Origin: a virus
Lineage: Duplodnaviria > Heunggongvirae > Uroviricota > Caudoviricetes
Length of the DNA: 6,064 nucleotides
Reading direction: 5' to 3' (one strand)
IMG/VR virus record: IMGVR_UViG_2700989162_000007
The translations under genes and the position numbers were made by a program. Of the stretch, positions 1,135 to 1,764 are shown one piece after another. Positions within the stretch are counted from its first letter, which is position 1. Each line of letters begins with the position of its first letter. Under the pieces are notes generated by a model that was not told where the DNA came from, searched no databases, and was given only the letters and a program-made list of their open reading frames with translations.

Positions 1135-1764
1135 TCAGCCCCGGCTGGATCCAGTCATCAGGCTCTTTCTTAAAGGGGGAGTATTGAAATCACGAAGAAG
1201 AGCCTCCCGCACCGCAGCATCCATGTCTGCACCACTGGCAAGTGCTTCAATCTCTGCCGCCACCTGCAAATACCCCATGCAACGGCCAATGCGTTTCATA
1301 ACTCTGGTGTTTTCGTCTTTCAGGCATCTGATAGCGAGATTAATAATTTTCAGGCAGTGATGATGCGATGCCCGGACAGGTTTTCCGTTCTCATAAACGA
1401 CGAACTCACCCTCTTCACAGGAAACCCTGAAAGGCCGATGGGGTTCCTGGTCTTTATCCGGTGCAGACGCAATAAAATCACTTTTATGCTCTTCCTCTCC
1501 GGCACTGTTAACCGTAATGACGTACTCAGGCCGCAGGTAAGCCGCCTCTTTTTCTGACAATGCGGCCGGTAAAAACTTTTCCTGCAAAAACTTCATAAAA
1601 GTCTCGTGAGCGACTTTGTGGCAGTAATCGTAAATCGCCGCATAATGCTCATCGCGGCGTTTGTTTTCATCTTCAGAACTCACCAACGCCGACAATTTTT
1701 TATTAAGCTCAGTGATTTCATTTTCCAGGTGATTGAATCGCTGATTCATTTCTTCATGCTTCAT
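1135..1764 (-). CDS. uncharacterised 209-aa protein inside the lysis cassette (N-terminal predicted coiled coil, C-terminal Cys/His-containing region); possibly related to the prophage DUF1327/YdfR-like family, unverified
   Basis: Long ORF with no stops, same strand as flanking lysis genes. Strong RBS (GGGGAGAG) 6-8 nt upstream of the ATG at 1762-1764, which lies 3 nt after the pinholin TAA stop. No hydrophobic transmembrane segment or signal peptide. Contains an HHHC motif and five Cys. I do not recognise the sequence. Confidence 0.6.
   Translation of the reverse strand: MKHEEMNQRFNHLENEITELNKKLSALVSSEDENKRRDEHYAAIYDYCHKVAHETFMKFLQEKFLPAALSEKEAAYLRPEYVITVNSAGEEEHKSDFIASAPDKDQEPHRPFRVSCEEGEFVVYENGKPVRASHHHCLKIINLAIRCLKDENTRVMKRIGRCMGYLQVAAEIEALASGADMDAAVREALLRDFNTPPLRKSLMTGSSRG

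Follow-up and report, generated by a model that had tools for sequence, protein, structure and literature searches.

A frameshifted phrog_1085-family gene in the polymorphic slot between the pinholin and SAR endolysin genes of a lambdoid prophage

The DNA analyzed here, a stretch of 6,064 nucleotides from the Caudoviricetes record IMGVR_UViG_2700989162_000007 that is called the window at its full length, comes from a lambdoid prophage, of which it covers the segment from the replication genes to the lysis genes, every gene being on the minus strand. The open reading frame (ORF) under study and its neighbors are as follows.

5096-6043, minus strand: DnaC-like loader
3708-5099, minus strand: DnaB-like helicase
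3159-3362, minus strand: ninH
2786-3202, minus strand: antiterminator Q (PF06530, E 6e-54)
2276-2586, minus strand: four tRNA genes, between Q and S
1768-1983, minus strand: phage-21-type pinholin S, 71 aa (PF04971, E 5.5e-35; phrog_9876 and phrog_20, holin)
1771-1778, minus strand: Shine-Dalgarno (SD) sequence GGGGAGAG within the 3' end of S, used by the inserted ORF
1135-1764, minus strand: 209-aa ORF, classed here as a short-form phrog_1085 gene with frameshifted 3' end (RefSeq WP_001300760.1, 'hypothetical protein')
1070-1111, minus strand: 42-nt leader ahead of R, no SD
536-1069, minus strand: SAR endolysin R, 177 aa, lysozyme (PF00959, E 5.4e-24; phrog_7, endolysin)

The tRNA set consists of CAT (Met by ARAGORN; the homologue is Ile in RefSeq), Arg-TCT, Thr-TGT and Gly-TCC, and Lys, Thr and Gly tRNAs are found in the corresponding position of the related phage PhiR47_1. 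A textbook hairpin with T-run (AAACCCGCC-TCCG-GGCGGGTTTTTTAT, ~2673-2700, minus strand) is situated 3' of Q and 5' of the tRNAs, where a late-promoter-proximal terminator overridden by Q is expected; it was not among the sites listed by the consensus scan. The pinholin displays the dual start MKSM (M1/M4), and the translation of R contains a Gly/Ala-rich SAR-like segment at its N-terminus (AAVLALIAAGASA) as well as E35, D44 and T50, which we take to be the catalytic triad, the triad and SAR assignments being presumed from R21. Hence, the window carries both marks of a phage-21-type cassette, a class II pinholin with dual start and a SAR lysozyme with the E/D/T residues. The start of Rz lies at the window end and includes a run of N. 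These 110 N (422-531) correspond to only ~40-42 nt in the near-identical relatives L003 and L004, so that the masked stretch is out of step with the length in the relatives. Beyond the window, the L003 prophage (E. coli CFSAN029787) carries a ParD/RelE-ParE toxin-antitoxin pair and a KilA-N gene (18398-18932 and 17702-18199) between Rz and the terminase genes.

The position of the 209-aa ORF at 1135-1764 on the minus strand, between pinholin and SAR endolysin, was confirmed. Its ATG (1764-1762) lies 3 nt past the holin TAA (1770-1768) and behind the strong SD GGGGAGAG, which supports the translational coupling to S that had been proposed, and the endolysin indeed has no GGAG-like motif ahead of its ATG. 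The product is predicted to be soluble without any hydrophobic segment (GRAVY -0.63), as its highest 19-residue Kyte-Doolittle value amounts to 0.76, while that of the holin is 1.75 and that of the endolysin 1.78. AlphaFold2 (AF2) secondary structure places two long helices at the N-terminus, residues 3-27 and 30-63. The HHHC and several Cys that the original prediction had furthermore noted in the C-terminal region do not form a conserved motif: near-invariance is limited to H136, whereas most relatives carry Ser or Arg in place of C137 and some have Ser or Ala at the site of C162. A metal site formed by HHHC/Cys was dropped, because these residues are not conserved.

The protein matches phrog_1085 (category: function not known) over residues 1-209 and profile positions 117-288 of 296 (E 1.2e-73, 249 bits). 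Together with 132 homologues and pairwise dN/dS values of 0.26-0.45, which mark the family as being under moderate purifying selection, this identifies the ORF, at the level of sequence, as a real gene. That it arose as an ORF by chance or goes untranslated is hardly conceivable, given that the 132 homologues share conserved domain boundaries in three genera, that the selection values and a PHROG match at E 1e-73 argue against it, and that the strong SD stands at optimal spacing. The consensus scan of the window revealed no promoter-like or terminator-like site flanking the ORF. The gene is also not unrecognised as had been assumed, since the identical protein is catalogued as RefSeq WP_001300760.1 and occurs on at least 1000 public contigs; we agree that a function cannot be assigned to it.

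The ORF had been regarded as an unusual insertion into a slot that is canonically closed, with S and R adjacent. To determine the occupancy, a concatenate of holin and endolysin was searched against the phage collection and an evenly spaced sample of 60 rows was evaluated. The S-R slot was filled in ~13 of 43 records (~30%): S and R were 4 nt apart in 30 records, among them VT2-Sakai, phi24B and many Stx2a phages, 11 contained an insert of ~0.4-0.8 kb, and two had longer inserts, with S and R matches too far apart to be joined. The same sampling of complete E. coli genomes (60 rows) gave 12 filled and 8 empty places among 20 (~60% filled), the occupants being mostly annotated as 'YdfR family protein' or 'DUF1327 domain-containing protein'. 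Hence, an intervening gene is common rather than exceptional in phage-21-type cassettes, a large share of which is filled, and adjacency of S and R is merely one of two common cassette states in both samples. The location that had been given for YdfR in the Qin prophage is correct, as the RefSeq annotation places ydfR next to rrrQ.

The junction past S is used differently in the two states. In VT2-Sakai the sequence GGGGAGAG-TAA-GCTG-ATG serves R, which begins 4 nt past S, the GGGGAGAG motif being followed by TAAGCTGATG for R. In every filled cassette examined, including the window, a junction of the type GGGGAGAG-TAA-N-ATG serves the inserted gene instead of R, and in all Escherichia cassettes examined the inserted gene starts 3-4 nt past the S stop. 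The last 22 nt of the leader ahead of R (CGATAAATCCTGATAAATATCC, 1070-1091) are near-identical in most insert-bearing cassettes of the comparison set (the window, L001, L008, L012, L013 and L014), with L014 sharing merely the last ~17 nt. Insertion into the slot strips the endolysin of its SD and could thereby alter lysis kinetics, and hence toxin release, in insert-bearing Stx phages. E. coli ECMA0423 (L005, 4687-5211) carries the same holin and a near-identical ORF, whereas the next lysozyme is just 47% identical to that of the window, indicating a recombination boundary directly past the ORF.

In its full architecture the family begins with DUF1327 (the YdfR domain, PF07041), which a linker connects to a coiled coil; a variable middle part then leads to the conserved C-terminal module, whose end reads PPFKKxPxxWIxPGLxYLKxRI. 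Long forms of 268-333 aa carry PF07041 at the N-terminus, score 118-155 bits for it and align to 94-96% of the window protein; short forms of 185-217 aa begin at the coiled coil, and still other proteins, including K-12 YdfR and many others, consist of DUF1327 only. The region shared by long members is 43-82% identical to the entire window protein, the upper value being reached with residues 120-333 of the 333-aa homologue P0004. PF07041 gave no match in the window protein at E <= 1 (gathering score 25 bits), which can accordingly be classed, from these alignments, as a short form with coiled coil and C-terminal module and with DUF1327 absent. The suggested membership in the YdfR/DUF1327-like family therefore stands insofar as the protein is homologous to the part past DUF1327 in long YdfR proteins, but DUF1327 itself is absent. 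Its two modules map as follows.

1576-1758, minus strand: N-terminal helical hairpin/coiled coil, aa 3-63 (AF2 secondary structure; tblastn matches to aa 4-62 alone)
1174-1440, minus strand: conserved C-terminal module, aa ~109-197 (family alignments)

The coiled coil is also found fused to unrelated C-termini (P0118, P0133). The C-terminal module contains a beta-hairpin, H136, the GRCMGYLQVAAEIEA helix and LLRDFNTPP, and the conserved core GR[CSA]MG[YL]LQ[VLI]AAE together with H136, in columns that are invariant or nearly so, is present in the window protein. A profile search of 1.84 billion representatives recovered 42 proteins, all named members belong to Escherichia, Shigella or Salmonella, and a scan of the genome collection yielded three loci, all in Escherichia or Shigella; as judged from these searches, the family is very narrow and confined to the three genera. 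The profile search and structure prediction that had been suggested thus led to phrog_1085, with no Pfam, PADLOC, PDB or fold match. Scans of the window protein with Pfam, NCBIfam and PADLOC gave just sub-threshold matches to coiled-coil families, with 0 families of the PADLOC-DB v2 defence models matched at E <= 1; a Pfam scan of 31 family members found DUF1327 alone, in the long forms; no PDB sequence was matched below E 0.05 in profile searches, and Foldseek against BFVD gave no match at E <= 0.001. For the window protein, AF2 with a 15-sequence alignment reached a pLDDT of 50 and was unusable. The intact homologue P0002 (31 sequences) reached 66.5 over the whole chain and 67-88 within the C-terminal module, for which a sheet of three strands and, after it, four helices are predicted, with the tail as the final helix. 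The label 'YdfR family' spans at least three separable modules, of which only one has any experimental lead.

The C-terminal module of the window copy does not run to its regular end. It has suffered a frameshift, a feature that the original prediction had missed.

1175-1179, minus strand: site of the 1-nt deletion, a G5 run on the plus strand (C5 coding) (DNA alignment, translations)
1138-1173, minus strand: out-of-frame replacement tail LRKSLMTGSSRG, aa 198-209, then TGA at 1135-1137
1112-1174, minus strand: ancestral tail FKKEPDDWIQPGLTYLKRRI with TAA, readable in the other frame

In the DNA alignment the relatives have CCG CCC in the Pro-Pro codons and the window has CC CCC; accordingly, relatives end with ...NTPPFKKEPDDWIQPGLTYLKRRI, whereas the window reads ...NTPPLRKSLMTGSSRG-stop. 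The last 20 residues (FKKEPDDWIQPGLTYLKRRI) are thereby swapped for 12 unrelated ones (LRKSLMTGSSRG), which align with nothing in the family, and the conserved tail PPFKxxPxxWxxPGxxYLKxR is not present in the frame of the window protein. This tail is kept in ~105 of 120 homologue clusters, and its W, P, G and Y hardly vary even in Salmonella proteins of ~30% identity; going by these alignments, the family is nowhere better conserved than in the part that was lost. The frameshift also modifies the picture of the 65-bp AT-rich spacer reported ahead of R: the 65 nt (1070-1134) are there and contain 66% A+T compared with 50% in the window, but 23 of them (1112-1134) are former coding sequence and the true R leader measures 42 nt. 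The intact 213-aa relative L008 stops at the homologous site, 42 nt ahead of R.

Frameshifts in close relatives had been named beforehand as a sign against translation of the ORF. They do exist, in the window copy itself and in the near relative L007, which is annotated as a frameshifted pseudogene, but the first 197 codons of the window copy are intact. A sequencing error can be discarded as the cause, because the identical 209-aa protein occurs on at least 1000 contigs, mostly of Shigella flexneri, and six complete E. coli genomes carry the frameshifted allele at >= 99% identity, one of them in a complete-looking prophage at mlrA where it is annotated as WP_001300760.1, hypothetical protein. 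The frameshifted allele is fixed in S. flexneri. In the window protein, residues 151-209 reach a pLDDT of just 29-41, compared with 67-88 in the C-terminal module of the intact homologue, which points weakly in the direction of a disturbed C-terminus, as the underlying alignments differed. The idea of the tail as a membrane-targeting amphipathic helix was rejected, because its hydrophobic moment is inconsistent across homologues (0.14 to 0.69).

Collectively, the window allele probably encodes a product with impaired function, at best a truncated variant. Speaking against impairment, PGAP annotates the allele as a normal CDS, and it is fixed in S. flexneri and present in the six E. coli genomes with 197 codons intact. 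Such a widespread and fixed allele might even be fully functional, either because the tail is dispensable or because -1 slippage partly restores it, yielding two isoforms. At 1171-1180 (minus strand, ACUCCCCCUUUAAG; the sequence spanning the candidate slip site is ACUCCCCCUUUAAGAAAG) the deletion puts CCCUUUA in the X_XXY_YYZ register as C_CCU_UUA, hence a small fraction of full-tail protein might be made; a -1 slip at this heptamer would read ...PPL-KKEPDDWIQPGLTYLKRRI and restore the ancestral tail. We nevertheless regard a fully functional allele as improbable. Folding of the 81 nt that follow is not better than that of shuffled sequences (z 0.96), for which reason a programmed-frameshift stimulator was dropped, an SD-like stimulator is not evident either, the heptamer is a by-product of the deletion that is not kept in that register in relatives, and the tail is nearly invariant family-wide. 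S. flexneri is a young clonal lineage, and the intact upstream codons therefore carry little weight. In annotations of S. flexneri and some E. coli strains, the 209-aa product should be read as a frameshifted 217-aa gene.

A different context was found in Salmonella, in one contig that originated from one protein look-up, a second one having yielded no further context. Here, the phrog_1085 homologue is located upstream of the holin with its own SD and a terminator-like hairpin ahead, which indicates that the position between S and R is not intrinsic to the family. The homologue comes after an ArtA-like ADP-ribosyltransferase gene pair and is followed by a convergent 105-aa ORF. In the Salmonella enterica locus L010 (3157-4469) an ArtA-like ADP-ribosyltransferase gene with weak Pertussis_S1, Scabin-like and Enterotoxin_a matches and a 106-aa downstream gene stand just 5' of the phrog_1085 homologue, a position of the ArtA-like gene that mirrors that of stx in Stx phages. 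The convergent ORF of ~105 aa belongs to phrog_1853 (function not known, soluble) and was located, always convergent, in four loci.

L001, 4654-4968: convergent phrog_1853 ORF
L002, 4493-4807: convergent phrog_1853 ORF
L009, 3194-3514: convergent phrog_1853 ORF
L010, 5599-5916: convergent phrog_1853 ORF

It accompanies the phrog_1085 gene in Stx phages of E. coli, where it sits between this gene and R, and in Salmonella, its position relative to the holin being variable. Its presence in L001, L002, L009 and L010/L011 and absence from L006, L007, L008 and the window make it a frequent but not obligatory partner. This partnership bears on a moron reading, in which the gene would serve defence, anti-defence or superinfection exclusion, in many relatives as a two-gene cassette with phrog_1853. 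The variable, mosaic content of the slot, in which the N-terminal coiled coil stays the same and the C-termini are exchanged (P0118, P0133), would fit such a role, as would the accompanying ORF in E. coli Stx phages and Salmonella. However, the window lacks phrog_1853, as do 4 of the 8 distinct arrangements examined, PADLOC gave no match at E <= 1, and the gene lacks a promoter-like site of its own while being co-oriented with and coupled to the late operon, so that it should be silent in the lysogen. These features argue specifically against a defence gene expressed in the lysogen, and the moron reading as a whole appears very doubtful.

The tight linkage to S could alternatively point to a soluble lysis-timing regulator, antiholin-like or acting on the endolysin, which is made stoichiometrically with the pinholin and binds the cytoplasmic tail of S21 or delays release of the SAR endolysin. 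The start 3-4 nt past the S stop in all Escherichia cassettes examined would be in line with this role, the loss of the SD ahead of R would change the S:R ratio, and, by analogy, the soluble antiholin LydB of P1 is likewise encoded directly past its holin. Nevertheless, we consider such a regulator unlikely: many phage records with this cassette, VT2-Sakai and phi24B among them, have nothing in the slot, the Salmonella homologue stands upstream of S with its own SD and terminator-like hairpin, frameshifted or truncated copies recur, matches to lysis-category PHROG families or Pfam lysis families were not obtained, and S21 has its own antiholin via the dual start. The empty slots, the differing position in Salmonella and the recurrence of damaged copies likewise argue against any core lysis role.

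With moderate confidence we favor the reading that the ORF belongs to the late operon as an optional, accessory gene and not as a core lysis gene, and that the window harbors a tail-less, probably impaired copy. The ORF occupies a polymorphic slot directly past the pinholin stop and takes over the SD, with its spacing, by which the endolysin is served when the cassette is uninterrupted; the endolysin is left behind a 42-nt SD-less leader that recurs in the insert-bearing cassettes examined. From the slot position and the borrowed SD we infer that its transcription depends solely on the late promoter under Q antitermination and that its translation keeps pace with that of S. The 1-nt deletion that swaps the most conserved 20-residue tail for 12 unrelated residues would then probably yield an impaired product. 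On the other hand, the tight coupling to S in Escherichia could reflect a lysis-related role.

As for the mechanism, literature searches brought up no study of the gene in the S-R slot besides an RNase E interaction screen that included K-12 YdfR. Two-hybrid and pull-down assays showed that residues 1-72 of K-12 YdfR bind RNase E 1-597, its catalytic half; RNA co-purifies with YdfR, and overproduction of YdfR causes little change in the transcriptome (PMC13232886). Since the C-terminal module is fused to this RNase E-binding domain in the long forms, it might perhaps share the YdfR pathway, and as a tentative working mechanism the product could be a cytoplasmic, oligomerising late protein in this pathway that affects host RNA turnover and probably does not act on holin or endolysin. 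Against the RNase E idea, the domain fusion is its sole basis and the RNase E-binding region of YdfR has no counterpart in the window protein. A further-reaching version, in which coiled coil and C-terminal module form a hitherto unrecognised late-phase effector whose conserved C-terminal peptide docks on a partner from host or phage, either the RNase E/RNA-decay machinery or the pinholin, is rather improbable. If it were true, such modules would be shuffled in a hotspot, the S-R slot of Stx and Shigella prophages, and the window allele would be a natural tail-less mutant useful for dissecting their function.

The gene is already catalogued as WP_001300760.1 and phrog_1085, and nothing here indicates a new kind of system; the finding matters little, because the slot is commonly filled and this copy is damaged. 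However, the family is present in many Stx-converting phages, hence establishing its function would be useful.

Among named systems, the ORF resembles YdfR of the K-12 Qin prophage and the RefSeq YdfR family proteins in occupying the same slot, past a class II holin and before a lysozyme. In contrast to YdfR (DUF1327, PF07041), the window protein is devoid of DUF1327, the part that binds RNase E (PMC13232886), and K-12 YdfR with its 103 aa has in turn none of the modules of the window protein. The match to phrog_1085 is full-length and includes the 213-217-aa short forms of the Stx2a phage Stx2_12E129 and of E. coli SCU-111, although the window copy deviates from the norm of this family by the missing N-terminal third (DUF1327) and the conserved C-terminal 20 residues lost by frameshift. 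The flanking genes S, R and Rz look intact and correspond to the S21-R21-Rz/Rz1 cassette, whereas in comparison with the uninterrupted version of VT2-Sakai an extra gene takes the place of R and R is found behind an SD-less leader. P1 LydB and T4 RIII are soluble antiholins or lysis regulators encoded next to holins, and the ORF shares with them a small cytoplasmic product encoded directly 3' of the holin gene; this likeness is a functional analogy only, as no sequence or fold relationship to known lysis regulators was detected. Unlike such antiholins, the phrog_1085 gene is dispensable in many cassettes and stands in Salmonella away from the 3' end of S.
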